Shown piece by piece: positions 263-61,127 of a DNA stretch of 64,000 nucleotides (positions are counted from its first letter, which is position 1; each line of letters begins with the position of its first letter). Under the pieces are notes generated by a model. The model saw nothing but the letters and a program-made list of their open reading frames with translations. It did no database searches and was not told the DNA's origin. Made by a program: the position numbers and the translations under genes. Source of the stretch: Zootoca vivipara (Eukaryota); contig NC_083286.1 in NCBI RefSeq assembly GCF_963506605.1, positions 26,722,001 to 26,786,000 of the forward strand, written 5' to 3'.

Positions 263-2025
263 GCCTCATGGGGCAGACACACAAATGGCAGCCATTTCTA
301 TATCAAGGGTTTTACAGAGGCCTCAACTGGCAACCACAACAAGAGCGGCAAGCCCTTAGGGCAAGATGCTGGCTTCATTCAGTGCTCATTCTTGAGTGAA
401 AAGAAAAATGATTAAGAAGGTTCAGAATATAAGTTGTGCCACTGTCAAGCTATGTTGGCGTAACGCAGAAGAAAACACTGCTACTGAACAATTGTGTTTT
501 TAGCTTATGAGTGCTGAAATTCAGATGTTAACGATTTGTAGCTGATCTCCTGGTCACGTTCAATAACATTATGGATTGAAAAGAAGACCACTCTACAGCA
601 CCACATCCCCCTTGCTTTATGGAATGCATACTCATGTGCAAACTTCAGAAGGGAAACCCTGGAAGAATAATAGTGCAAGCTTGAGAAAGCCAAGTAGCTT
701 AACTCTAGGGCACACTAATCAGATATTTGAGTCGTATTTGAAAACCACAAACATACAGGAAAGAGAATAATAGGTTTGGAGATGTAAGACAGCTGAAGTC
801 AGTTCTCTGTGCAGAAAGCAGATCTGTTTACATCTCTGATTTACTAGCATAACTGCAGCGTTAGCATTTCATGTTTTAAGTTTTCCAATCAGTCGTCCAG
901 TTTTAAACACATCATCATCTGTTCCCCATGCTATGATGCAGAAGACAGACTGTTTTTGGAAGGCTGAGTGGAAGTGAGGTTGGCTAACATCACCCCCAGG
1001 TGGGAGCACTTCAGAGAGAGAAATAGAAGTGCAGGATCACTTTTATTTATTTATACTTTCCTCCTCAAAAGTATGTGGGTTTAAGTTCTACGCAGATAAA
1101 TAAAGGAGTCAGTTATCACATCTTGGTAGGTGGACAGTCTATAAAATGTGGTTTTTGTTCCTTCGTGGTTCACATGAGGACCACACAGGAGTTTGACTCC
1201 TCTTCATTCCAATGTCTTCATGATTTGCAAGGATATGCAAGAAAGTGTGAAAAGGGGTGGGGGGGTGGGGAGGACCTTTTCCAAGAAAGCAAATAAAAAT
1301 ACCATCCTTTGCAAGTCTTGATTTCAAAGTGGCAGTCTACAGTATATCAGTTTTTTATATCAGCATGGGGGGGACGGGACCTGTGGCTCTCCAGACATTG
1401 TTGAACTTAAAAGTCCCACCACCCACGATCATTGGCCATGCTAGCCAGAGATTGTGGAATCTGGCACCCAATGGCACCTGGAGGGTCACAGGATCTACCC
1501 TACTTGTTTGATTCTACTGACTGACAGTAGAGTTTGATTCTACTGACTGACTTAAAGCTGCCATGACACACAATGTGCCTGAGTAAAGGAAGTAGAACAA
1601 AGCAGAAAATTGTCCTCCAGGTTCTCAGGTTTTCACCACCTGCAAAAGAGGCCTATTTTCCAGCCCCTTTTATCAGGGGGCTTTAGAATTTTACATTTTG
1701 GGTGGGTGCGTGTGAGATTGAGCTAATATATTGTTGCAGATTGGCTGTGGGTAGCGTGCCGTTTTTAAGCGTTTATTGTACGGCTTCCTAACACACGTTT
1801 CTGAAGTGTGCAACAGAAATATAACACAACATGTATAGTAAAAATGAAATATCCATTAACTATCTAAAAAAACATCCTAATTACACACGTTCCATATAAT
1901 CATACAATATAGTTGGCGTAAGCTCTCTTTGAAATGCCAGGTTTCAATAGCCATCTAAAAGCAAAAATTCCATAAAGCTGGAAGCACAACCTTAAAGGGT
2001 GGGTTTCTACTTGGTGTCAGGTATA

Positions 2026-2374
2026 AAGGTAAAGGTAAAGGCACCCCTGACCATTAGGTCCAGTCGCAGACAACTCTGGAGTTGCGGCACTCATCTTGCG
2101 TTATTGGCCGAGGGAGCCGGCGTACAGCTTCCAGGTCAAGTGGCCAGCATGACAAAGCCGCTTCTGGCGAACCAGAGCAGCACGTGGAAACGCCGTCTAC
2201 CTTCCCGCCAGAGCGGTACCTATTTATCTACTTGCACTTTGACGTGCTTTCGAACTGCTAGGTTGGCAGGAGGTGGGACTGAGCAACGGGAGCTCACCCC
2301 GTCGTGGGGATTCGAACTGCCAACCTTCCGATCAGCAAGCCCTAGGCTCTGTGGTTTAACCCACAGCGCCACGA
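2026..2374 (-). mobile_element. Sauria SINE
   Basis: (aaaggt)n tail, tRNA-like head, 11-bp TSD tgtcaggtata. Confidence 0.88.
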
Positions 2375-3484
2375 TGTCAGGTATACAGATCCATTAACAA
2401 TGCCTTATTTTAGAAATTAAATGGTCAGGAAGGGGTATATGGGGCAGAGGCGATCCCCTCAGGTATTGATGGCAGGGGATCTTTCTTCTATTAAAAGGTG
2501 TGTTTTCTCTCTGCACATTGTAGCCTCAGGCCTACACTTCCTGATCTCAAAAAGCCCCACAGAGTGTTACTTCATGCTACCCTCTCCTGGGTTTTAATCA
2601 AACTAGAAGAAGCTGGGGAGGGAAGTAGCTTTGGAGCACCCGAGATCAGTATGCTCAGATTTTGTTTTGAATGTCATTTTTATTTTATTTTTTTAAATCT
2701 CTCAGCACTTTAAGATAAAAATTTTTAGGGGTGGAGACTCACCCACAGTGGCCAGGTACATAGCAGGTAACATCCCCGGCTTCTGCCCATGCAGTAAAGC
2801 CCAGTGAGGATGTCATGGGGTTTTCGGAAAATACAGGCCCCAGGAAGGCTGCAGTGTGAACACTGGTGATACAATTTGTAGATAAAATAGGGCACCTTTG
2901 AAAGGAAGCAGACTAAAACTCCTGTGCCCTGAAAGTTACAGAAATGTTATCTTCCCCTTTAATAACTTTCAAATGCAAATTTCTCAATGCTTTTTTTAAA
3001 AAAGTGTTTTCAACACAGCACTCAGTTGAAACAGTTAATCCTTTTGACTAGGATGTATTGCTGCATACAGCTAACTGTATAGTTGTCCTTAGCATCTACA
3101 ACACCCAGAACACAGAAAAGCTCAAGATGCCACACTCCTTGTGCCCTTGCCTTAGGAGTCTAGAACAAGAAAAAGCTCCTGCATCTTAGAGGGACCTTGC
3201 CACCTGAACAATTGAAATATTTCATCCCATTAAACATTGCATAACGTAGAGCATGGGTGAATAACTTGTGGTTCTCCAGACATCACTTTGCTCCAACTCC
3301 CATCAGTCCCAGCCAAGTGATGGGTCTGGGAAGACAGAATTTGAGTCCAATACCTAGGAGGGACACAGGGTAGACATCCCTGATTTAGAATGTGTTGAAC
3401 GATGTAGAAAGAAGTCCAAAGTCTCAGCTGACATCCTGTTAAATACATCTGAGGAATCTGGATAAAGCTAGAAGAAAGTCACAT

Positions 3485-6400
3485 ATCTTTGTATTTAAAA
3501 GATTTTATTTTCATTTCACCAAAAATAAAACAAAACCAACAGTGTTTGTAATACACATGCCCTTCAATCAGTGCTCATTATATGCACACCATTTTTATTT
3601 GAAATATAAGAAAATAGGCTTTATTTCTCCTTTACAAATTAAGGAAAACCAAAAATTTGCATATAACGCTTATACATGTACATATGCACACCATTTTCCA
3701 AAATCCGTCTCCTCAAAGTAATATTGTACAACTTGGCTCTTACTCTTTTGATACGCAAGGTTCAAAAAAATTCCTGTTGCAGCTGATATTCCAGAAATAC
3801 TTTGATGTTACCATTATTAAAGCCAACTTCTTGTTATCAATATAACTACGGATCTGGTGCAAATTTACTCTCAAATCCACTCTCTCTTTTTCTGAAGCCT
3901 TTGCAAATTAAAAGACTTCAGACTCCATCATTCATTCAAATTTTAAAAAGGTAACTATTTTAGATTTTTACAGTAATTTGCTACATGGTGCCATGACTAA
4001 CTTAAAAAAGATGCCAGACCATTGCTTTTGATCAAAGAGATGTTGTCATGTGTAAAGATCTGAATTTCTACTACAAAACAGCAGGTTTAAGTAACACAGC
4101 AATTCTAGGAGGTTTAAGTTATTAAAGGCTAAAACCTGAGAACTTAATATGGCAAAAAAATATTTTTTAAAAGGTGGCTAGAACTTTAAACATTTCATTA
4201 AACAAAGGAGAAAACATTGTAAACATTTAGGAGCATCATAGCAAAGCAGAGTTTACCCACGTGTTTAAAAAAAGTGTGTGCATGGGGGCGGAAGGGGGAT
4301 AATTCTATGCATCTAAGCAAAGCCTTTGAAACTGAAATTAAGGAACATGTATCTAAAAATTCACTGGAGCTTCAGTTCATGAAATGCATACAAAGCATAC
4401 ACTTAAATGAGGCAACCTTTTAAATTTCAGAGTGCAATGAAAGATAACATCTTCCAGAAGAGATTTAAGAAAGCCAATCTATCAGGAGGAGGAATGTTCT
4501 AATGGAGAACAGGTGAAAGATACATAGCAATATAAATACAAAATCAGCTCAAAGGTCAGCATCCTGTAGCATGGTGCTAGTAAGGAAAAATTAAGGCCAC
4601 ATTCCTTAGGAGTATTATCCTTACAAAATGCATGCCTGATTTCACATATGGCAAGATGTAATGGAGGGGGCAACTTTTTAAAGCAACAGGATCCATTACA
4701 AACCTGCTATATCCATCCCTACATTCCCACCCCTCACTCACATAGCTAGAAGGATCCAGATTTTACAGTTAAAATGCAGGTATATGCAGCAGCTTTGTGA
4801 GATTAACTTCAGCCAAGCTGATTCTGCAAATATAAGCAGCTTGATGCTTCTGAGAGACTATGTACCACTGCTTTAGCTAGAGATTTCGGATATCCTATAT
4901 TCTGTGTCTCTCTCTCCTTTCCTGAATTGTATCTAACGATAAAGACACACAGACGGGGGGGGGGGGGGGTTTCAAAGGCATTTATAAACAACTTTAATGT
5001 AGATTTCTCTATGAACATTTGGTGTGTTTCAAGCTACTGTGACCGCTTCAGGGAATTCTGAAGAATGCAGCACAATGCTAGCTTCATCTTTCCCCTCCAA
5101 AGTTCTCCACCCATTCAGAAGCTTTAAGTGTGAACGGATATTCATGCAGCATTTTCCAGAATTACCTGAAGTTTGCACAGGAGCTCAAAACACAAAATGT
5201 TTTTTTAGATATTACATCAAAACTTGTTTATAAGCACCACACATTTCCCCTTTGTTTCTGAGGGTACAATTCTGCACGATAAAATCTTAATGTTTGAGCC
5301 TGGTGACATGTGGAAGCCGCAATCCGAAGGTAGTAGGAGAGAGGGGACTTTTTTGTACCATTCACCTCACCACACAAAAAAAGCTGATAAATGGCTGTCA
5401 CCAGTTGGTAATCTAAGTAATTTAGTCTTAAGCTTTTCCACACACAACTCCCATCCTGCTTTCATTAAACTCATGGAGGGCTGAGGAGGACTGTGGTTGG
5501 AAGCCCTTTCACAACATTGCATGCTCTGCTAACCTCAACTCCCAAAATCTGAAAGAGGAACCTGGGTGAATATAGCTGTATGTTTATAAGAAATCACACT
5601 AAATGGGTGAACATGACTGGAACAATGGGCACCTGGTTTTCATTTAAAGAAGATGTACAGAAGAAAACTATTTGTGAACATTAGGTGTGTGGTACATACA
5701 TGGTAGATACATGTTTCTATGCGTGTATTTATCTTTAAATAGCTGGATAATGTTTACCGGGGGTGGGGGGGCAATAAGTCTAACTATGGAACACTGAAGT
5801 TGTGCTGAAATTGTGTGACGACAAAACAGATGGAGGTGCTACCTATAAATTGGCTAAGCCAGACAATTTGGATGGAAGCCTGTTTTGCTACAATCCCCCA
5901 AATCCATGGCTTGGATGCATACATAGCAAAAAAGCATACTTCTATGTTTCCAGTGTCATGTGCACAACACATTTCCCAACACTGAAGAGAACAGGCAATT
6001 CACTGCATGGTGTAAAAGCTCTGTGGCGCACCACAGAAATGTGAATTATGTTCCTTGACTCCCAGTCTCAAAAGAACCAAAAAGTACTTCTGAATGCAGT
6101 TTTCCTATCACCGAGTATGCATATAATGACACATTTCTATAGCTGTAAAATATTGTGAATGGAGGGTTTTTAAATAAACAGACATCCTTTTATATATCAT
6201 TAACATATTCCTTGTGCAATCATTACAATATACTCTAAGGCACATGAATCATTACAATTTGATTTAAAAGCACAACCAAGATCGATACCATTCAGATTCT
6301 TTTCATACAAGATCCTCAAAGAAAAGCTTAAAATTAAAATTCAGTATTGGATTAACAAGCGGGGGGGGGGGCACACAGCTTTCAAATTTCTAAACTATAT

Positions 6401-11986: not shown

Positions 11987-12039
<53 letters not shown>

Positions 12040-15000
12040 TTGTAGCCCCAAGTTTTGAAGCAATGTATAACACATGTCCATAAAGCAAGGAGAGAAAGCG
12101 CCCCCCCTCCCCCACATACAGATGCTGCCAAGTCAAAACTTGCCCTGACATTAAAGTCAATGAATGAAATCTCTCTCGTCAGTACAAAAGGTCAAAGAAG
12201 GGAAGGTGTGTTAAATGCTGCACATGTTTTTTAGACTTCCTTTTACAGTGACATATAGAAATTGCTCTTAGGATTTTCTTGATGATTATATGTGTAATAT
12301 CTTCTGTTTCATACCATATCAGTTTTTTAACATCATCTGCACTGGCCAATGCTTCAAGGATTTTGAGCTTTTCTGGTTCAGACACCAAATACGCATACAT
12401 GCTTAAAAGATAGTTCCAGCCACTTTCGGTTTTTGCTCCGGCTGTGAATATGATCTTCATAACATCTGTTGGCAGGCTACAGAGAGAAAGTGCAAACCTT
12501 TATAAGAACAGCCTAAAAAGAATAAGTCACATCAAAGCATTAGCTAACATGATATGAACCATAGCTTATCTCAGTAGGTCCTTAAACAAGGGGCTAATTT
12601 GAAGTCGTCCGACGGGTGGGAGGGCAGGAATCCTACACTGGCTATGTGCCCTGTTCCAAGCACAGAATAGGATATAGCAGCCAAGGCAGGAGGATTTCGC
12701 CACTGCTTATCGGGGATGAAACCCCTTTGCACTTCTCCTTTAGTCAGTACCGTGTTTCCCCTTTTTTAAGACACCGTCTTATAACTTTTTTCCCTCAAAA
12801 AAACACACAGTGGCTTATTTTCAGGGGGTGTCTTTTTTTAAAAAAAAAAGTGCTGGTACAACTGGGACCCACTGGCTCAGGATGCTCGGTGCTCTCTTCT
12901 GCACATTGCTGGGCGCGTTGTTGGCGCTGCCAGTTCCGAGCGCCTGCAGGGTGGGGTGGGGGTGGCAGTGCTTTAAACCCCCAACCCTGTAGAAAGCAAT
13001 GGAAGTTATGGACTGTAACAATCCTTAAGAGGCGCAGGTCTTAAAAAACCCCTGGTATCACCCTTGAAGCACAGCCTTCCAAAGTCAGGGGGGAATAGGT
13101 CTGTTTAGACAAAGGAAAGGATCGGGGGTGATTCTGTGCCCTGGGACCCACAGAACTACTTTAAAAATCCCAACCTGGGGGGGGGGGTCAAATAGTGAAG
13201 CCCCATAGCCCTGTAGCAACAGAAGGCACATTCTGAAGCACCCGAGCTGTTCGGTTCCATAAAAAATCCAGGAATTGTAAAATTAACAACAATAATGGGG
13301 GGGCACTCTATCCAAAGAGTTAAGAAGGAATGGGAAAGTGTTGAGTTATATATGGAAAAATATGGAAAGGAAAGTTAGTTAAAGATAAAAAATAAATAAT
13401 TATCGCAAGGGGAAAAATAACATCATAAAGGGTAATAATATTAAATATAAAATAGACAACACAACAGAAAAAGCAAGTATATGACTAAATGAGATCGCAC
13501 AGGAGTGAGGGAAGTGGGGAGAGAGGGAGGGGGGTAAGGAATGGAAGGAGGCAATGGTTGGAGGAGGGTATAGGGGGATGAATTAAAGGAAAATTAAGAC
13601 TGAGAAGCGCATGGTTTTTGTTTTTTAAAGATGCAAAGGCTTGCAATCAGCCAAAGTATAGAGCCCAACTTCTAGGAGACTGCGATCTACTTGCGGATTT
13701 ATAAACTGGAGGTGATCTACCCCCGTTATATTGGTGTTCAGGTCAGAGTTGTTTTTAGAGAGAGGAAATATCCCATTTTTGAGGTTAAAGTAAAAGTTCC
13801 TGACCTTTTTTTTATAATGAGGAAATGCTGCTAAAACTCCGTTCTTCATTCCACGAAGGGGAGAGGGGGCGGGGCCGGGTGCTCAAAGACAAAAGAAATG
13901 GAAAAGGAGATAGCGATCAAATCCAGCCTCGCATTCATGCAGCCGTCGGGAGAGGCAGGGGCTGCAGCCGAGTGCTGCTTCACAAACAAACGGGGGAAAG
14001 TGCTTAGAACCCAGAGAATCCAGCTGAAAAACACGAAGCAGCAACAGCAATTGCACACACACCATCCCAAGCCAGCACAGTAACCAAGTCCCAAAAGCAA
14101 GAAAGGACTCAGCAAACACTGCTGCGGCCGGCGTTGCTGCTGCTGACTCGGGGAGCTCAGTGATCTCTTCCGCACAGCGCCTATCACTATGGCTTATTTT
14201 CGGGGTACGGTTTATATTTCTCAAATGCTTAGAAATGCTGCTATGGCTTATTTTATGACTACGCCTTAAAAAGGGGGAAACACGGTATGTGTGTGTTTGT
14301 ATGTGTGGCAGAAGTGGTGGGGGACTCCCTATCACCACCCACTCACTTAAAGGAAAAGCAGAGCTGCTATAAAGAGCACTTTCGCAAAGGACCAGCTCTC
14401 TGCAAAGCAGCCATTCCTCACCACTTCTCCTCTAACCATTGCTGCGAGCAGGTGGGCAGTAGTGTGAGGGGTAACTCTCTCCCACATTTCAATTACAGGT
14501 AGGTAGCCGTGTTGGTCTGGATCGAAGTAAAATAAAAAAATTCCTTCAGTAGCACCTTAAAGACCAACTAAGTTTTTATTTTGGTATGAGCTTTCGTGTG
14601 CATGCACACTTCTTCAGATACAGTGAAATGGAAGTTTCCAGGCACTTATGTAGAGAAGGGGTGGGGAGGGGTGGGGATGGGGAGGGGGGATCACCCAGAT
14701 CAGACCCTTCTGGGTGATCCCCCCTCCCCATCCCCACCCCTCCCCACCCCTTCTCTACATAAGTGCCTGGAAACTTCCATTTCACTGTATCTGAAGAAGT
14801 GTGCATGCACACGAAAGCTCATACCAAAATAAAAACTTAGTTGGTCTTTAAGGTGCTACTGAAGGAATTTTTTTATTTTACCACATTTCAATGAAGAGGA
14901 GGTGGCTGCTGCAAACAGCGCTTTTCCAAAGGGCTTTAAGACAGCTCCCTTGCTCCTGGCCTGAGCCTCCAGAAGCTCAAATGGGAGTGTGGAGGCTGCC

Positions 15001-18000
15001 CTAAAGCCTTTGCAAGTCTGTGTGCCCCCCCCTTTAAACCTCCAACAAGCAGGGTTTGAAGAAGAAGTGTGGGGAGATATGCAAAGTCTTTTGCACGTCT
15101 TCACACAGTTCCCTGTTAAACCTCCAAACGGTTCCCTGGGAGTTTTAAGTGTGCAAGTGATCCAAGAGTGGCTGGGGGAACTCAGCCAGATGGGTGGGAT
15201 ATAAGTAATAAAATTATTATTATTGTCCAAATGACATGTGATTGACAGGTGGGAGGTCCCACTTACCTGTCAAATTTGGCCCTTGTGGCAGATCCTGATA
15301 AGGATCTGGCCCATGGAGCCACAAAGCTTCTCCACCCACTGCAAAGAAGCCTATGAAACATCAGGAGTGAGGCAGGTAGAGACATCCATGGGGAGTTGGA
15401 CTGCATAGCTGATCCCTGCAGAAGCAGGATTCAAACCTGATCAGTGTGACTTCGAAAGCACCACGGAGGGCTCTTTGCAAGCCCTGTGTGGTGCTTTCAA
15501 GTCCCGACGATCATTACCACTGTGATGTCAGGTGGGTGACATGAAGGCTGCTCCAGCCAATTTTCATATATTGTCTGTGAGAAGATGAAGAGATGAGAAT
15601 CTGGCCCACAAGCCAGAACAGGTTCTCTTCCCCTGATATAAAGCTGGGGAATGCTTCATCATGAGTAGCTCACCTGAGGGAGCAAAACCACAGCAACAGC
15701 TCCATCTACGCACCCTCATAGCCCACCCTCCCGTCTTGCCACTGCCTACCATTAAGCACTGAAGGGAGGCTATAACTGCACTTTTGCCCTCCGGGTGAGC
15801 CACTTCTGTGAGAGATGCTGATCCATATTTCTATTTAAACCCATCAGGCTGCAAGATGCTTGACTGCATTGAGACTATGTAATAGAAAACTATTTCTGAA
15901 TGCCATAGTACGCAAGAGGCACTCGAACCAAGGAGCAAGTCTGTGTTTTACCTTTTTGTGCCACTGGAGTCTTTCCATTCATTAAATAGCTTGGTAGCAT
16001 CTGTGCTGCAGTTTTCCAAATTATGGGTGCAGGCGAAGGTTAGCAGACTTGACTTCAGCTCTTGTTCTGAAAGGGTGCCATCACTTGTCCATTTCTGTTG
16101 ATTAATCTTGTCTTTAAATAGTTGTAACATCTTATGCTGGAGAATAAAGAGGAAAAGTTATCACTATGCAAACTCTGTTACAACAAGCTTGTGCTAGGTT
16201 GGAGACTATAAACTGCAAACACCCCCCAAATCACACGGCTCCTTGCAACACTCCTGTATCTAATGCTCCATTCTGGCAGGTCTGCCATTCAGTTCTGAAG
16301 AGAATTTCCTCACTGTCTTACATGTGCTCAATCTCAACTGGCACCAAAATGAGCCCAATGAGTCTTTGAATGACCTGCGGATCAATAGGCTAGTTCAAAT
16401 CTATATGAATTATATTAAAAGGCACATAAAACCAGTCACACCATTTTTAACTCACTTTCATAAGACTTTTTTTTTAACCCAACCCCCCTTTCAATAAAAT
16501 CTTTATTTGTCTGGCTTGCAGAGTTCATGAGCTGAAACAGTGACAGTTCTGCTAGGTACACATTCCACATTATCATTGAATAATAATAACAACCAGCAGA
16601 TTCATGTAGAACCAATTTTTTTGATTGCTAAGGTGTATGCTTTCTGCATCGTTGAAATGTTACAGACAAAAATGCTGTGGCACCTTGAAGACTAAATGGT
16701 TTGTTTGGGATGGACACGAATAGACGTTCTCCTCCTTTGGTATATGATTACAGAGCAGAGTAATAAATAATAATAATAATAATAATATCCATCTCTTTGC
16801 AGTTGGGGTTCAGAAGTTACAAATGGCATTTACATATACTGAGAAAATACAACATGCTTTTAAATGGAAAGCTCATAAACAACCCATCCAATATTCCAAC
16901 ACTAATCACAAGAAAACAGTATGATTTAGAAATTGTCCTTCCATGTAGTACAAACTATTTTGCCCTAGTATGAACTTTATATCTAGCTTCCACCACCTGC
17001 CTACTTTCAGTAACTTACCAATATTCTCGCTGAAAGGGTCTGCATTCCTCTTTTTTCAACTAGGTTGAAGATACGGTTCATTTGGTCCAATGCTTGTGTG
17101 ATTGGAGAAGTGCTGTTTTCTTTCACTAGGTAGTCAATCAGGTCAAAGGCTTTGGCCAAAGACACCTTTCCTAATCTAAAGGGGGCATCAAAAACAATGA
17201 CAACAAGATACTGTCAAGCATTCTGACGAGCCTAAACAAATGTAAAAGACCTTGTTTGTGGTACAGGATATAAGTTATTCAAATATAAAATAGTTTTGCT
17301 TTATTTCTTCATATTATTAGATTTATACATTCATTCATTCTGGAGGCAAAACCTCCGTAACAGATGATAAGTTCGATTCATTATAGCATTCTATTGATAA
17401 GCCCCCAAAATCCAAAGTGCTGTTAAGATCTATCAAACAACACTGGACTAAATTCCTGCATTTTTCACTCTTCTTGCAAACTCGCCATTTCTCGCCTTTA
17501 ACAAAAGAATCCTAAACTAAAGCCTTTGCAATTTCATACTTAAAGAGTTTCGTTATGCACAACAGTGAACATCTAGGATAACAAAGGTAAAAAATAATTA
17601 ACACATCCAGATTAGATAAGGTTCTCCTTTATCCCTCTGGCCCACCAGGCGGTCCAATTTGACCCACAAGGTCATTTCCCCCAACCACATAACCTGCCCA
17701 CTCGTGACATCAGCAGATGGGCAGAAGGAAGGGTTAAATCCTGCAATGGCTGTGTGCATTTGTTCCCAGCAAGAACCAGGAACATGCAGCCAAAGCAGAA
17801 GGATTTAAACCCTGCATCACCTGCTAAAATGAAGGGGGGGAACCTCCCTTTTAGCAGGGTTTTCCATGAAAACCCAATTACTGGATCAGAAGGGGTTTGC
17901 ATGGAATTGTGCTGAAACCAAAGGCTCTTAACTAGCCCACCACTGCACAGTAAAGTCCCAACAACCTGGACTTCCAGGTGACTGACAGATGAGCAGCCTT

Positions 18001-21000
18001 GCCTACCAGCAGTGGAGAGATAAAGATCTGTCCCATGGGCCAGAAAAGCTTCCCCACCCCTTTCCTAGAAGGTTTGTTCTTAAAACTCTGGATTTGAAGA
18101 AGGATATATCACAGTTCAATGTAATAACTTTAAAGAATTACCCTGCCAGATTAAAAATGTTATGGATCAAATTGGCTCTGTCTCTGGAACTCAGAGCAGT
18201 GGGCTCCGTCTTCAGCAGGTCAATTAGAGCAGCCCAGTCGTTTTCCGCATACTGTACAATATAGTAACCATTCGAGTCTACATTGAATTTCACCCACTGT
18301 GTTTCACCTGGAAGGTCAATGGTATCTAAGGAAGGGGGGAAAGGAGGAGAGAAAGAAAGAAAGCACTGAATAGATTCAGTCTTCGGATCATTTGCAAATT
18401 TCTAGGAGTACATCAGGGCAATAACACTTCACTGGCATCATTTAAGAAGCTTCCTAAATTTTACTGGGAGCAGTAGGAGCCAGCCAATGATTACAGCTGC
18501 AGAGCACCTCTTAGCTACAACTGACTTACAGCCAATACTATCAACACTCAATCTGAGACAATCACAGTGTGCATGGCAAGCCTTCATTGGACAAATGTGC
18601 CTTTACTGCATGTCACTACACACGGCAACATAGCAAAATACCTACGCAAACTGCCCAGCAGCCGTGTAAAAGGGAAGAGAGGAAATAACTAAAGCTGGAG
18701 GCGTATTGTGAAATGTGATGCATCACAAGATCTGATGCACACAACCTATTCCCAAAGTTAATACTGTGTTGATAGGCTATTAACAGTAATGCTTGGAGAG
18801 ACGTCCCATGGGATCACTCCCTCTCAACCTACAGAGGTGACAGGAAGTACTCAGTTTTATTTATTTGCTGAATGTCCACATGGGCCAGGGAAAAAATCAA
18901 CTGCAGAGAACTTAGCACATTTGATAGGCATATTAATGTGTTGAATCCAGTCTTGCATTTCACCTCACACTATATAAAAAAGGGGAGAGGAATCCCATCC
19001 TTGTATAAAGCTTTCTAAAGTTAATCCCGGTACAAAGATATATTTTGTAAGCCAACTTACCTACCAACAGTACATTTTTGCGTGCTTTTTCCAGAAAATG
19101 TTGTGGATGGCATTGGTTTAAACCTTTTCTCCTTAAAATAGGTTTACTGCTTTTCATTAGCATATTTAACTTCTCAACTATGCAGCAGCCTGGATTTTGG
19201 CAGTGGGATATGTATATATTTTTAACACACACTGCTTTCATCTTCCCTGGAAACCAGTTTTCAATTATAGAAATGCATCTGTCCAGAAGTGAATTACTTG
19301 AGTCTCTGTGGTTGGCACCATTGCCCCATCCTTTTATATTTTAGAGGAGCCAGGTTACAGAAAGCTATCCATTACAAACTTAATTCCAATTTCTACCATG
19401 AAGCAGGTCTGCTCTATCCAAGAATGTACCTCCAGGCAAACAGAAGGTAGGTTTAGGCTACACATCAAAGAACTGTTCGGTCTCAAGGGAGGCGTGCAAG
19501 GAGAACAGCTCACTAATTAGCTGAGAGTCACATAAGTCCTTTTCGGGCTAAACAGCATTTATTCATTTAGATCAAGGTTTCCCAAACTTGGGTCTCCAGC
19601 TGTTTTTGGACTACAACTCCCACCATCCCTAGCTAGCAGGACCAGTGGTCAGGGATGGTGGAAACTGCAGTCCAAAAGCAGCTGGAAGACCCCAATTTAG
19701 ATGAACTAGTTTTGCTTTTTCACATCCTAACCTGGTTTAAAAAAACAACTACTCATGATGGACCATTGAGTTCATTTTGAGCTCAGACCCATTCCGGACT
19801 TTAGGTTTGACTAGACTCCCGATGCCACTGGGAATGCAAAGCCTCCTCTCTAAACCCTCCTGAGCTGCCTCATCCATTGAGAAAAGAGAGCAGGCTTAGA
19901 GGCCTTCCCAACCCCTGCAAAACAACAAAAACATAAAAGCCTTGCCTGGCAGCAGTACAGAAAAACTTCAGTCTTCATTTGCCCCTAGATGCTACAGGAA
20001 CACAGTCCCAGACAATATACTTCTAGGGTATCGTAGATTTCCAAGGTTTCCAAAGCCTTGTCAAGAAATATAAGCCTTGAGAAATTACTTTCCGTAAATC
20101 CTGGTGCTGGGATGCTGCTGAGAATATGCTTTGGTGGCAGGATTTTTTGGAAAGTACAATTTACTAAGGACCTAAAAGAAGCTACAATTTCTAGGCAACC
20201 TGGCACCTAACAAATGAAGGCCATTTCAGCTACTCCTCACTGCTGCTACCACGTGAATGTCTGAGGGAAAGAAGGTCGTACTAATGTTAAGTTGTGTTTG
20301 ACCTTTGAAGAGATTGGCTCATAATCAGTCCAAACTGGAGAAATGTATATTTTAAAGTCTCTTGTTCTAAACTTCAGTTGCAATCTTGGTTAAAAATTAT
20401 CTACTATAGACACCAGAAGCTAACACAATTTAAACTATCTGTTTCTTGCAATTATTTATATTCCATTTTTCAGGGTACAAATCCTACCAATGCTTTCCTA
20501 TTAAAAAGTAATTTGACCATGTTATGCTTCAACTTTCTCAAGTTCCCAAAGTCATATACAAGTATCGCCAGTAAATAATAATAATAATGATGATGATGAT
20601 GATGATGTGAGACATTTCCTTGCTCTAACCTATGCCAGCTCATAAAGAGCCAAATCAGAAGTGAGCACTAGTAAAGTCAAAGAGGGAACACTATTCAAAT
20701 AAAATGCACCTGAAAATTAAATGATATGGAGGGGGGTAAATGTATCCAAATGTAAAAAGATTACTACCGCTAAAAATCTAGGACAAATTTTTATTGGCCA
20801 CAGTTATTCTGTGAGGGACAGAAATACACACAGGTCCTGCTATCAGAATACTCATTATCCAAAATCTCTGTTATCTGAACACAAAGAATTATACCTAAAC
20901 CTCACTATACAAACTGCCGATTCAGATATCCAAACAGATAAAGTTTGCCCACTTCCTTAATTGTTTGTGTTTTGCTGATGGCCACGAGCCATTTTGGGCA

Positions 21001-24000
21001 GAAACTATGGAGGAAGGGAGAAAGATTGGACAAATCAGGGGGCAGGAGAGAATGGACAAATCAATTTTTCCTTTATCTGCCTTCTGATTGGCTGCAGCAG
21101 TTTCAGGTAGAAAGTATGGATTTAAAATGTTCTCTTGGAAAATAACAGAAATTATTTCAGCCCATGCAAACGCTTGCCTAACAATTTTCTGGGGAGCATA
21201 TGGTGTTCAGAAAGCAGGACTTGCATGTACTCTTAATTAACAGAGACAAGATATAACAAGTCAGAAGCTACAGAATTTAGTTGCTACAGAAATTGTACTA
21301 GTTCAGAGGTTTAAAATCCTAAAATGCTTAGCATGTTACAACTAAGAAAATAATCATTTTGGTATGCCCCACTTTCCTATCCATACAAAAAAAGTGTTTC
21401 AAATGTAAATGAATTATGTAAATGAAGTAAATGAATTGTATTGCAGACTCAAAATAATGAGGGCATATGCACTTTCTTAACTATAAGCTCTGAACATTGA
21501 CCATTTATTTTACAGAAATTAAACCCCTACCCTTATTCCAACACTAGCCATCAAAGATCAATGATGTTGCTTCTGAAAGATGCTCATCATTTGGCTCTGG
21601 AAACTATTCCACATTAAGAACGTATTTGTGCATTGGTTGAATTTACCATCTGTGAAGACAAAAGCCTTCAAAAACATACATACCTGACTTTTGCTGTAGC
21701 AAATAATTGTAAGAACTGAAGGGCAAGGTGCCATTGCTGGTGGTATAAGAAAGAGGAATGCTCCACAAATAACTGGAAGAGGAGAAAGTGTTTACACAGT
21801 GTTAAAGATTGCTTATGCACTGTAACTTAAAGAAAAAAACAGGTACTGATAGTCCTTCCTACGTTTGTGTGCAGAAGCATTGTTTATTAAACTTAACAAA
21901 ATTAGTTGAGGGTAGTTATAAAAATCAAGACCAAACCTGTGCCTACAAATCTTGTGCTTTAAAGCAGGCACAGGCAAACTTGGCCCTCAAGATGTTTTGG
22001 GACTACAACTCCCATCATCCCTAGCTAACAGGACCAGTGGTTAGGGATGGTGGGAGTTGTAGTCCCAAAACATCTGGAGGGCCAAGTTTGCCTATGCCTG
22101 TTTTACAGGTTCACCACGCAATTTGTTTTTGTAGAAGCAAATCTGTTTTGTACAAATGCACACACAAAACCACAGATCTACAAGGAGCTCTTATGTTCAC
22201 GGTATGCAAGACACTTAAAATCAATCAATTTTCTCCTCCCATTCTGCTTTTCTGCATAAATTCGTGAGTAGCAATTGGCTTTAAGTGCCATTCAAATAAC
22301 AAAAGTTTATTTTTCCATGAAGTCATTCAATTGCCACAATCAGCAGTGACGTGTTAAGAAATTCTCAAACTATACAATATTTGGGCCATTCTGTGTTTCA
22401 GGCAAAGAAAAAGATATGAAAAATCAGAGTAGTCACCTCCCCTCTTTTTACTTAAGAGCTGATACATGGGTTTTAGATTTTAAAAACGACTCTGCATGTG
22501 GAACCTCAGCTGTTCTTCACAAGATTGGGGCCATCATTCTAAATGCAAGACATTTCCCAGCATAACTTCCCAGAGAAGTTCAGCAATTCCAACTTTCCAT
22601 TTTACACACCATAAGAAGTGTGCGGGGAGGGTGAATGCAAGTCATTTGCACTTTTGTACAACTTGGAATGTACAAAACACCTCCAGTTTAATACTCCACC
22701 TTTATTTTAAGGCACAAACTTTTATGCTCCCCCCCCCCAATTTAATCTACTTGCCTTTCCCGGCAATGGCAACAATCTTGGCTAGTCGAAAAATATACTT
22801 CCTTGAACTAGGTTTCTGCCACAAAATGTTGATATAATCAGTGTGTAAAAAGAACAGCAAAGAGTGGAGGTTATGTCCAACAGATTCATCAGCAACCCAG
22901 ACACTCCTATGTGGACGGTATAAACCCACCTTCATATCCCAAAGTGTCTTCTTCCTACCTTCCATCTCTATCTTGTCACTCCACCTCTAATCCACGTGTT
23001 TCAAAACAGATTTGAGGTATACTAGAAGGTGAGCGAGTTACTCTTCTCCAACTGACCCCTCCAACATGCTCCCATCATTTCCAGCTGTTCTCTCCCAACC
23101 TGGGCAGATGTGCTGGACTGTGCATCACTCAGCTTGATATTTACACCACACCTCAGTGGATTTATTTTCCATCGACAGTGTAAGCATTCGGAAGCCTCAC
23201 CCCGTAAGCTAAAACACTGTCGGCAGAGTTAAATCACCCGGATTTAAATATAGGGGGAAAAGAAAGAAACCTGGCAGGTATGGTCTGATTTTCCAGTTCC
23301 ACATTGTGCACAAATGGCTCCTGCTGCAGATGGATCTGTTTGCCTTCTCTTTTGACAGTCACCAAAGGAAATCCTTTCTGGAGAGTCCAGGTCTTCATGA
23401 TTTTTTTAATATCAACACGGGTGTCATTTATCACCTAGGAAAGCACAGGAAAAATAATCTTTTGAGGAAGAATGTATTATGGGATACCGCCAATAGCTGC
23501 CTAATCAATTCACTAAAACAACGACCCTGGTGAAACCAGGGTTTTAAGTCGTTAAAGAGAATTGTAACTGCCAAGTTTATCAGTGTTAGTTTGATAATAC
23601 AAGACCCATTTTTTTATTTTAAAAAAGTAGTTCGGAAACTGAACTCTACCTTCCTATTTCCACACTGCTTCAGATATGCAGTAGAAGCGTTTGAGAAACG
23701 CAAGAAACTGAGAAAAAGTCACAGTACTAAATTGCAGGTCATCTTTAGGAGGGATCTCCTTGTCCTTCTGAGAGACAACAGAAAAGGACCATAGATCTTC
23801 GGTCAGAACACAGTAAACTTCCCATTTAAGAGTTGAAATTTTAATTTCAGAAAATTTTATTTGGGATGTGGCTCAGTTTTCTAAAGAGAGGCCTGTCTTA
23901 AGGAGGCCTAATCTACCTCTTCATGAGGAAAACGAGCAGGACTAAAGGCAGAAGTTGTTTGAAGGCCACAGGCTGCTTTTTGGTTGTTGGCCGAAATCAG

Positions 24001-57785: not shown

Positions 57786-58393
57786 ATACAAATAAGTGGG
57801 TATGAAAATGAAGAAACAACTTTACTTCAGCTGTGAAATTTATTGCATCTTTATTGTAAATAAAAAGATGTGCAAGGAAATGGTATATAAAAATTAACCT
57901 TGTATGGAAATATTATGATGCATCCACTTACTTTACACTTCCTTCAAATTTTACTAAGAATGCAAATTGAGGATTATAACATATGGTATGTTTTTAATAT
58001 GTCACATTCCAATTTGAGGCGTCCAAAGTATACATTTTATACTAACCAAAGTTTCCAGATTGTATGCTGAGCTTGAAGACAATTCAGTTGGACATATTTC
58101 AGAATATAAATAGCTGTGGCCAGGGCAAAACTGTCCATGACCACCACTAACACAATGATCTTAACTGGTGAGAAGGACTTCAACATTACAAGATCTAATT
58201 TCAAGGTGATAAGATTTTGTTACTTTAGTTTACTGTGCTTCAGAAGCATACAGATTGACTTTCTGTGAATAAGCCAGCTGTTATCTCAATTATACTGATA
58301 GGGAATGAAGGATGAGAGAGAGCAAGTAATTCAAGGTTATCAGGCAAGGTTGTGGATGAGGAAGCATTTACTGTATAGCACTATCTCCTAGAA

Positions 58394-58529
58394 CAGGCAC
58401 CCCCACACTGCGGCCCTCCAGATGTTTTGACCTACAACTCCCATGATCCCTAGCTAACAGGACCAGTGGTCGGGGAAGATGGGAATTGTAGTCCAAAACA
58501 TCTGGAGGGCCGAAGTTTGGGGATGCCTG
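58394..58529. mobile_element. Palindromic hAT MITE
   Basis: 8-bp TSD tcctagaa. Confidence 0.82.
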
Positions 58530-59140
58530 TCCTAGAACTTGTCTGAGCTGCCACCATTGGCCATTCAGTTAGAAGGGTTTATTTATTAAATTTATATCCT
58601 GCACTTCCTCCCAAAGGGTGGCAAACAACAAGAGTTAAAGCAACAAAAACATCTTAAAGACAATTCCAATACAGGTGCAGACTGTAATGGGGAAGATCTC
58701 AACTTAAACTGTTTGTTGAAAGATGGAGGTATTCAGCAGGAACTGAAAAGAAAAGAAAAGAAAAGAGAGAGTGTGTCTATCTCTCATATTCAAGTGAAGG
58801 CAATTCCTCAGGTCAGATTCCACAACACTAAAACCCCCACCTCCAAAAGAGGTCCGAAGGGTGCCAACATGAGAACAGGCCTTTTCTGTGGTCGTTCCCC
58901 ATTTGTGGAATGTTCTCCTCAGGAAGGTTTGCCTGGCGCCTTCGTTATATCTTTATGTGCCGTGCTAAAACATCACTCTTTCAACCAGGCCTTTGGCTGT
59001 TAATCAATTTATTGGGGGGGGAGTATTGTAGTCCCCCTCCCTTTTACTATTATATTATGCATTTTGTGTTTTATGTTGCCACCTGCCTTGTGGTCTCTTG
59101 AGAAAGGAAGGAATATAAATTTAACAATAAAGGCCCAATT

Positions 59141-60991: not shown

Positions 60992-61127
60992 CAGGCATAG
61001 GCAAACTTGGCCCTCCAGATGTTTTGAGACTACAATTCCCATCATTGCTGACCACTGTTCCTGTTAGCTAGGGATGATGGGAGTTGTAGTCCCAAAACAT
61101 CTGTAGGGCCAAGTTTGCTTATGCCTG
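60992..61127. mobile_element. Palindromic hAT MITE
   Basis: 8-bp TSD gtctaagt. Confidence 0.82.

Follow-up and report, generated by a model that had tools for sequence, protein, structure and literature searches.

Two hammerhead motifs in an intron of the leucyl-cystinyl aminopeptidase gene (LNPEP) of the lizard Zootoca vivipara are best explained, with a probability of about 0.9, by one young insertion of a Penelope-like element (PLE) that consists of two truncated pseudo-LTRs (pLTRs) joined head to head, the hammerheads being standard cargo of the element and likely inert here. The locus likely adds one more case to a known type of insertion product with a known ribozyme motif, namely an ordinary transposon footprint instead of a gene-control switch. 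Taken alone it is minor, one among thousands of stumps, and its value lies in documenting cleanly how PLEs integrate. It also marks a very large and recent PLE burst in this lizard. Positions refer to the window, the stretch of 64,000 nucleotides that was analysed.

Insertion and hammerhead motifs in LNPEP

The insertion contains 389 nt (14493-14881) and carries both 38-nt hammerhead motifs in mirror arms. Because both motifs lie in one perfect 173-nt inverted repeat (14527-14699 versus 14709-14881), they are not independent. The features at LNPEP are as follows.

12477-15951, minus strand: host intron of LNPEP, from tblastn pieces, with GT-AG ends
14482-14493, no strand: target-site duplication (TSD), left copy, 12 nt, its edge bases common to the element end
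14493-14526, minus strand: 34-nt tail, on the left arm only, from comparison with the intact element
14527-14699, minus strand: left arm, 5'-truncated pLTR, together with the tail identical to L031:3314-3520
14584-14621, minus strand: minimal type I hammerhead motif, sense to the LNPEP pre-mRNA, predicted cut 14588/14587
14700-14703, no strand: 4-nt filler at the head-to-head junction, without match to the element upstream of either arm
14704-14881, plus strand: right arm, 5'-truncated and tailless pLTR, identical to L031:3309-3486
14756-14763 and 14782-14786, plus strand: TATA-like and initiator-like motifs, 28 nt apart, directly 5' of the hammerhead and mirrored on the left arm
14787-14824, plus strand: minimal type I hammerhead motif, antisense to LNPEP, predicted cut 14820/14821
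14881-14892, no strand: TSD, right copy, read from the sequence
36310-36559, no strand: second head-to-head insertion, more decayed, in LNPEP intron 3, with one tail, a 13-nt duplication and a motif pair at 36385-36441

LNPEP lies on the minus strand. Specifically, three exon-containing frames gave leucyl-cystinyl aminopeptidase as the top PDB match, and the closest named protein in the protein search is from a lacertid lizard. The minus-strand motif is therefore sense to LNPEP, in agreement with the first-pass annotation. Seventeen coding pieces were mapped by tblastn, and the insertion is located between pieces 13 and 14. The placement in an LNPEP intron thus holds, while the number 14 given to that intron is correct if there is one small first exon upstream of the mapped pieces. 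Human LNPEP has 18 exons.

The first-pass annotation described two hammerhead motifs, one per strand, and both are confirmed: 14787-14824 is the 38-nt motif as quoted there, and its exact reverse complement is at 14584-14621. The motif comprises a helix I of 4 bp, CUGAAGA, a single bulged A, helix II, GAA, a palindromic AGCU, and C17. Helix II is a 14-nt palindrome, which in cis gives 5 bp and a CAUG loop. No match to the motif was found in 100 shuffles. Like the minimal hammerhead ribozymes (min-HHRs) of metazoan PLEs, from which the consensus for comparison was taken (PMC4209133), it has a CUGANGA/GAAA/UH core, an extra base before helix II, G10.1-C11.1, a palindrome (15.2-16.2) replacing helix III, a short helix I, and a position in the pLTR. 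It differs from them in its shorter loop II, in the palindromic nature of helix II itself, and in having C17 in place of U17. This fit to the consensus, together with the identity of the arms to an element with intact reverse transcriptase (RT) and GIY-YIG domains, supports the earlier assignment to the Penelope type.

Opposite-strand hammerhead pairs at distances of 100–700 bp, as well as turtle and snake motifs, were already reported (Cervera and De la Pena 2014, PMC4209133). In the supplement of that report, the painted-turtle motif agrees with the lizard motif in the upstream UUUCACU, the core and AGCU, while helices I and II each differ by a single compensatory pair change. Letters like those of the initiator also precede the published turtle motif. 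One supplementary file of the report contained no lizard entry. No hammerhead family is among the 93 matches from an Rfam scan of 13500-16000. Almost all of these matches are to miRNA-type models and were discarded as generic matches to the long hairpin stem, as were two matches to EBv-sisRNA-2 barely over threshold.

The LNPEP locus contains an inverted 5'-truncated copy with a short TSD and a 34-nt tail at one end only (14493-14526), as is typical of insertions of endonuclease-bearing (EN+) PLEs (PMC8557442, PMC3846280). Pen2a_Av likewise has head-to-head pLTRs, a 30–40-nt tail at one end, a short TSD, and TATA/Inr-like motifs (PMC3846280; general scheme in PMC8557442), whereas the LNPEP insertion copies the pLTR only and has a TSD of 12 nt instead of 8–10. 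The TATA-like and initiator-like pair, judged by its letters, is a putative promoter of the pLTR; the start that it would specify is 3 nt before the hammerhead (14756-14786 and mirror).

The perfection of the 173-nt symmetry might point to an assembly or library fold-back artefact. This explanation is hardly credible given the asymmetric tail, the 12-nt TSD, the filler, and the same anatomy at other loci. In addition, an independent contig from DNA run X1 goes from the left flank 22 nt into the tail, which is under the 31-nt bridging standard. A MITE or hairpin DNA transposon was rejected on account of the one-sided tail, and of arms that are retroelement pLTRs with lengths varying between loci. 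MITE-like imperfect palindromes of ~150 nt that lack the hammerhead core are present elsewhere in the window, at 19583-19686, 21957-22108, 44071-44206, 58388-58535 and 60992-61127.

In the older insertion of intron 3, G5 of the minus motif is changed to A and G10.1 is changed in the other motif, and the junction is located at the 5' ends of the hammerheads. In both insertions, the tail matches a consensus splice donor when read on its antisense strand (14496-14504, plus strand; 36533-36541, minus strand). This donor-like sequence faces away from LNPEP in intron 14 and is on the LNPEP sense strand in intron 3; it could cause orientation bias or cryptic splicing.

Parent element and its relatives

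Five longer genome stretches were examined, and two of them (L031 and L032) carry a 3,030-bp unit in tandem, with pLTRs in direct orientation, the partial tandem characteristic of EN+ PLEs. Both LNPEP arms, the left one with its tail, are letter-for-letter identical to the pLTR of this intact element. The element contains a 901-aa open frame (L031:3529-6231), the product of which has DKG and YIDD motifs and gives Pfam matches over cut-off to RVT_1 (433-577) and GIY-YIG (799-840). It thus has the single ORF with RT and C-terminal GIY-YIG of EN+ PLEs. The hammerhead is in the 5' leader, ~100 nt before the ATG, and the 34-nt tail ends 8 nt before the ATG. The LNPEP insertion is devoid of ORF sequence because both copies are cut down to the pLTR.

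The RT-EN linker contains CX4CxxC (residues 761-769), in agreement with the CX2-5CxxC of Neptune elements, a motif that marks both the Neptune and Nematis clades (PMC8557442). By its linker, the parent element appears to be of Neptune type, with the reservation that this feature is common to Nematis. None of the 120 homologues listed is a named Neptune reference. Among these 120, the nearest relatives of the protein are one at 96% and otherwise turtle proteins at 61–70%; after the turtles come marine invertebrates at ~50% identity, with no other named squamate in the list. The patchy distribution could reflect annotation gaps or horizontal transfer, and the family may already bear a name.

The Poseidon element PAc of Anolis carolinensis is likewise a squamate PLE with RT and GIY-YIG, a pLTR hammerhead, and a two-ended tail (Frangieh et al. 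2024, PMC11167929). In the present family, by contrast, the linker is CX4CxxC (Neptune/Nematis type), and both hammerhead and tail are upstream of the ATG; the ORF of PAc begins in stem II, and reverse transcription begins inside the ORF (PMC11167929).

Non-LTR retrozymes are also non-coding, with type I hammerheads and an origin from PLE pLTRs (bioRxiv 10.64898/2026.07.22.740005). They are tandem direct units with a hammerhead in each, whereas the LNPEP insertion is a single inverted pair with its hammerheads on opposite strands. The pair was therefore not classed as a retrozyme, which has at least two tandem direct units. Elsewhere in the genome, locus L055 (G000:C1:2777200-2780100) carries a 598-nt unit four times over in direct orientation, each time with a hammerhead. 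These repeats span the ORF end, the pLTR and the ORF start, and resemble a retrozyme-like tandem derived from the parent element.

Copy number, layout and mode of integration

With one arm as the query, 36 scored matches were obtained in the lizard's genome; 18 of them are full-length at 100%, the two LNPEP arms among them. In 1.44 Gb there are 13,219 exact copies of the 38-mer (control, 0) and 25,184 relaxed-core matches (control, 22). When 16 core and junction positions are left free, ~22,500 genome copies match.

Conserved amniote intronic hammerheads of the HH9/HH10 type are low in copy number, are fixed at one intron, and have a stable helix III. The LNPEP motifs were rejected as host hammerheads of this type, as they have 13,219 exact copies, a site apparently empty in other samples, and no helix III.

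Core positions were tallied by eye in 99 of 100 listed rows, one junction row being omitted. N7 differs in 17 of the 99 copies (C in 11), G12 in ten (nine of them CpG transitions), and C17 in four, while each remaining core or junction position differs in 0–2. These letters suggest that N7, a free position, carries a subfamily variant, and that the catalytic G12 decays per copy like neutral DNA. Fifteen variants of the 32 nt upstream were distinguished in 66 of 89 copies, which were kept for comparison from a set ascertained on the motif. The variants differ from the window copy by a mean of 23%, versus 0.9% in the motif and 4.7% directly downstream. The core is thus kept across 15 upstream variants in this ascertained set, and the stems have compensatory changes relative to the turtle motif; no covariation in the stems was found within the Z. 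vivipara copies. The pattern of core positions and the upstream, motif and downstream divergences together suggest that selection acts on parent elements and not evidently on stumps. What looked like a 5' hot spot at the boundary of the hammerhead was discarded as mostly subfamily divergence upstream.

The first 100 exact copies listed, from one chromosome end, have 12 divergent, three tandem and one convergent neighbours within 2 kb. Twenty-five distinct divergent (head-to-head) pairs were gathered from all examined loci and the window. Exactly one tail is present in 22 of the 25, a tail and an unclassified end in two, and no tail in one; a duplication of 12–17 nt flanks 21. Because the loci were selected by similarity to the motif and are no random sample, the fractions 22/25 and 21/25 are indicative only. 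In the control with 500 random flank pairs, the shared stretch did not exceed 9 nt in 499, the remaining pair being a self-overlap.

This anatomy is consistent with priming at both ends of the target. Specifically, the element protein would nick the two target strands ~12 nt apart, and each nicked 3' end would act as a primer for copying element RNA, starting at the tail end in one case and 34 nt further upstream in the other. The two cDNAs would end after ~180–210 nt, and repair would join them with the 4-nt filler. The anole PLE protein nicks and extends both strands, and its reverse transcription starts at two sites between which the tail lies (PMC11167929). By analogy, two-ended priming at LNPEP would extend this in vitro result on Poseidon, a member of another clade, to an inverted layout. 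The text of the Poseidon report does not discuss inverted insertions. Our literature search for twin priming with Penelope found nothing on PLE integration in the sources as available, and a search for palindromes of Neptune-type Penelope elements in lizards found nothing.

Alternatively, a single cDNA could fold back or self-prime on an antisense template and copy itself, as was proposed for rotifer Penelopes from palindromes at inverted junctions (PMC3846280). We consider this unlikely, but it retains some appeal: the LNPEP arms are near-equal in length and perfectly complementary, and one listed copy (C1:1430939) has a junction centred on the helix II palindrome. Fold-back is at odds with the LNPEP junction, which is a 4-nt filler with no palindrome, and with the arms of other pairs, which begin at widely differing element positions (for example at L037, L039 and L049). 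It is also at odds with the 22 of 25 pairs in which the two arms have different ends, one at the tail and the second 34 nt short of it, and with the extension of both nicked strands by the anole protein in vitro (PMC11167929).

Two-ended priming may further be obligatory in Neptune-type elements. The rule of one tailed and one tailless arm, and the 12-nt stagger, would then be its footprint, with each nicked strand using a different RNA start site and nearly every complete insertion being a hairpin. We give this generalization roughly even odds. If it is true, the lizard family is a natural system for tests of PLE integration and for measuring intronic dsRNA load, with intact parents, more than 20,000 hammerhead copies, and still-segregating insertions as its assets.

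Folding, RNA and polymorphism at the LNPEP locus

The first-pass annotation proposed that the antisense arm is transcribed first, so that the ribozyme is buried in a hairpin. This is supported by a predicted stem of 173 bp, into which the hammerhead of the LNPEP pre-mRNA would be zipped during synthesis, with no same-strand partner nearby. In folding calculations, the minus-strand transcript pays 57–70 kcal/mol when it is constrained to the hammerhead fold, nascent prefixes included. The isolated arm folds in a hammerhead-like manner, with pair probabilities of 0.67–0.77 in helix I and 0.95–0.97 in helix II, so the motif is predicted to be foldable if the stem is opened. Burial of the pre-mRNA copy follows from the geometry of the insertion and applies to either strand of any head-to-head pair. 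A head-to-head insertion would thus silence its own hammerhead on whichever strand the host reads, which may be a reason why introns tolerate it.

Multimeric transcripts of the parent element are probably cut by the hammerhead acting as a dimer, with AGCU-AGCU pairing between copies, or assisted by the element protein. The folding model gives an active dimer no support, as the lowest-energy dimer has the two helix II palindromes paired (−30.6 kcal/mol, versus −11.1 for the double hammerhead). In the anole study, no RNA-seq ends were seen at the cut site, and cleavage occurred only with the element protein (PMC11167929).

Three RNA runs, ~6% of each of which was sampled, gave 3,959, 1,385 and 938 aligned reads. 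There is no pile-up of RNA ends at the predicted cut in these reads, which come from many copies, with zero on the unique intron at 14312-14481. Reads from many copies span the motif on both sides of the predicted cut. Differences of the A>G and T>C types at 14632-14637 (X21) were not accepted as editing, since both change types are present and the source copies are unidentified. A drop in RNA depth 5' of the hammerhead was not accepted as a start site, since other subfamilies or G-run bias could explain it equally.

The first-pass annotation regarded the locus as a special self-silenced intronic ribozyme, which, once freed by editing or unwinding, would cut the LNPEP pre-mRNA as a form of regulation. 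The core is indeed intact, sense to LNPEP, and sequestered in a predicted stem, and editing of lizard Penelope RNA is known, the repeat being described as massively hyper-edited (PMC5625713), so the editing idea is already in print at the family level. The claim of a special arrangement is not supported, as the layout is routine, recurring thousands of times in the genome, and the site is apparently empty in other individuals. A regulatory role is very improbable, given also that helix III requires a second same-sense copy, that editing would probably strike the A residues of the core too, and that no ends accumulate at the cut site among 938–3,959 reads per run, none of them on the unique intron. 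Published min-HHRs need a partner for helix III and are weak in vitro, with no cleavage of monomers and low cleavage of dimers (PMC4209133). The likeliest fate of the 173-bp stem would be A-to-I editing followed by removal with the intron.

The insertion might nevertheless carry a passive cost if the 173-bp intronic dsRNA has slight effects on the splicing of LNPEP or the stability of its RNA, with weak selection against it. The stem is long, perfect, and located ~1 kb from the intron donor and ~2 kb from the acceptor. Inverted Penelope copies yield siRNAs in Drosophila (PMC3681739), and Xenopus introns are depleted of tandem hammerhead repeats (bioRxiv 2026.07.22.740005). Such a cost is improbable in view of the older palindrome of the same family that persists in LNPEP intron 3.

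Four further DNA runs (X3, X4, X5 and X14) were compared at the right flank. Contigs from X4 and X5 align from 14881 rightward and then continue into 197 and 925 letters unlike the element. The former number equals the length of 14285-14481, and the latter equals 197 plus the 728 nt that the X1 contig carries beyond 14285. These lengths fit an empty allele in X4 and X5, and the intron 14 insertion therefore appears to be unfixed. X3 has 18 letters unlike the element beyond 14881, which is merely suggestive of an empty site, and X14, from another organism, lacks coverage of the unique flank.

The same LNPEP intron contains a 1.54-kb element (12748-14287) with 37-nt terminal inverted repeats, which is high-copy in DNA. 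In the X1 contig, 14285 is joined to 728 nt that do not resemble the window, enough to extend to the (TAT)n tract near 12020 were the 1.54-kb element missing. This element is likely a second polymorphic transposon.
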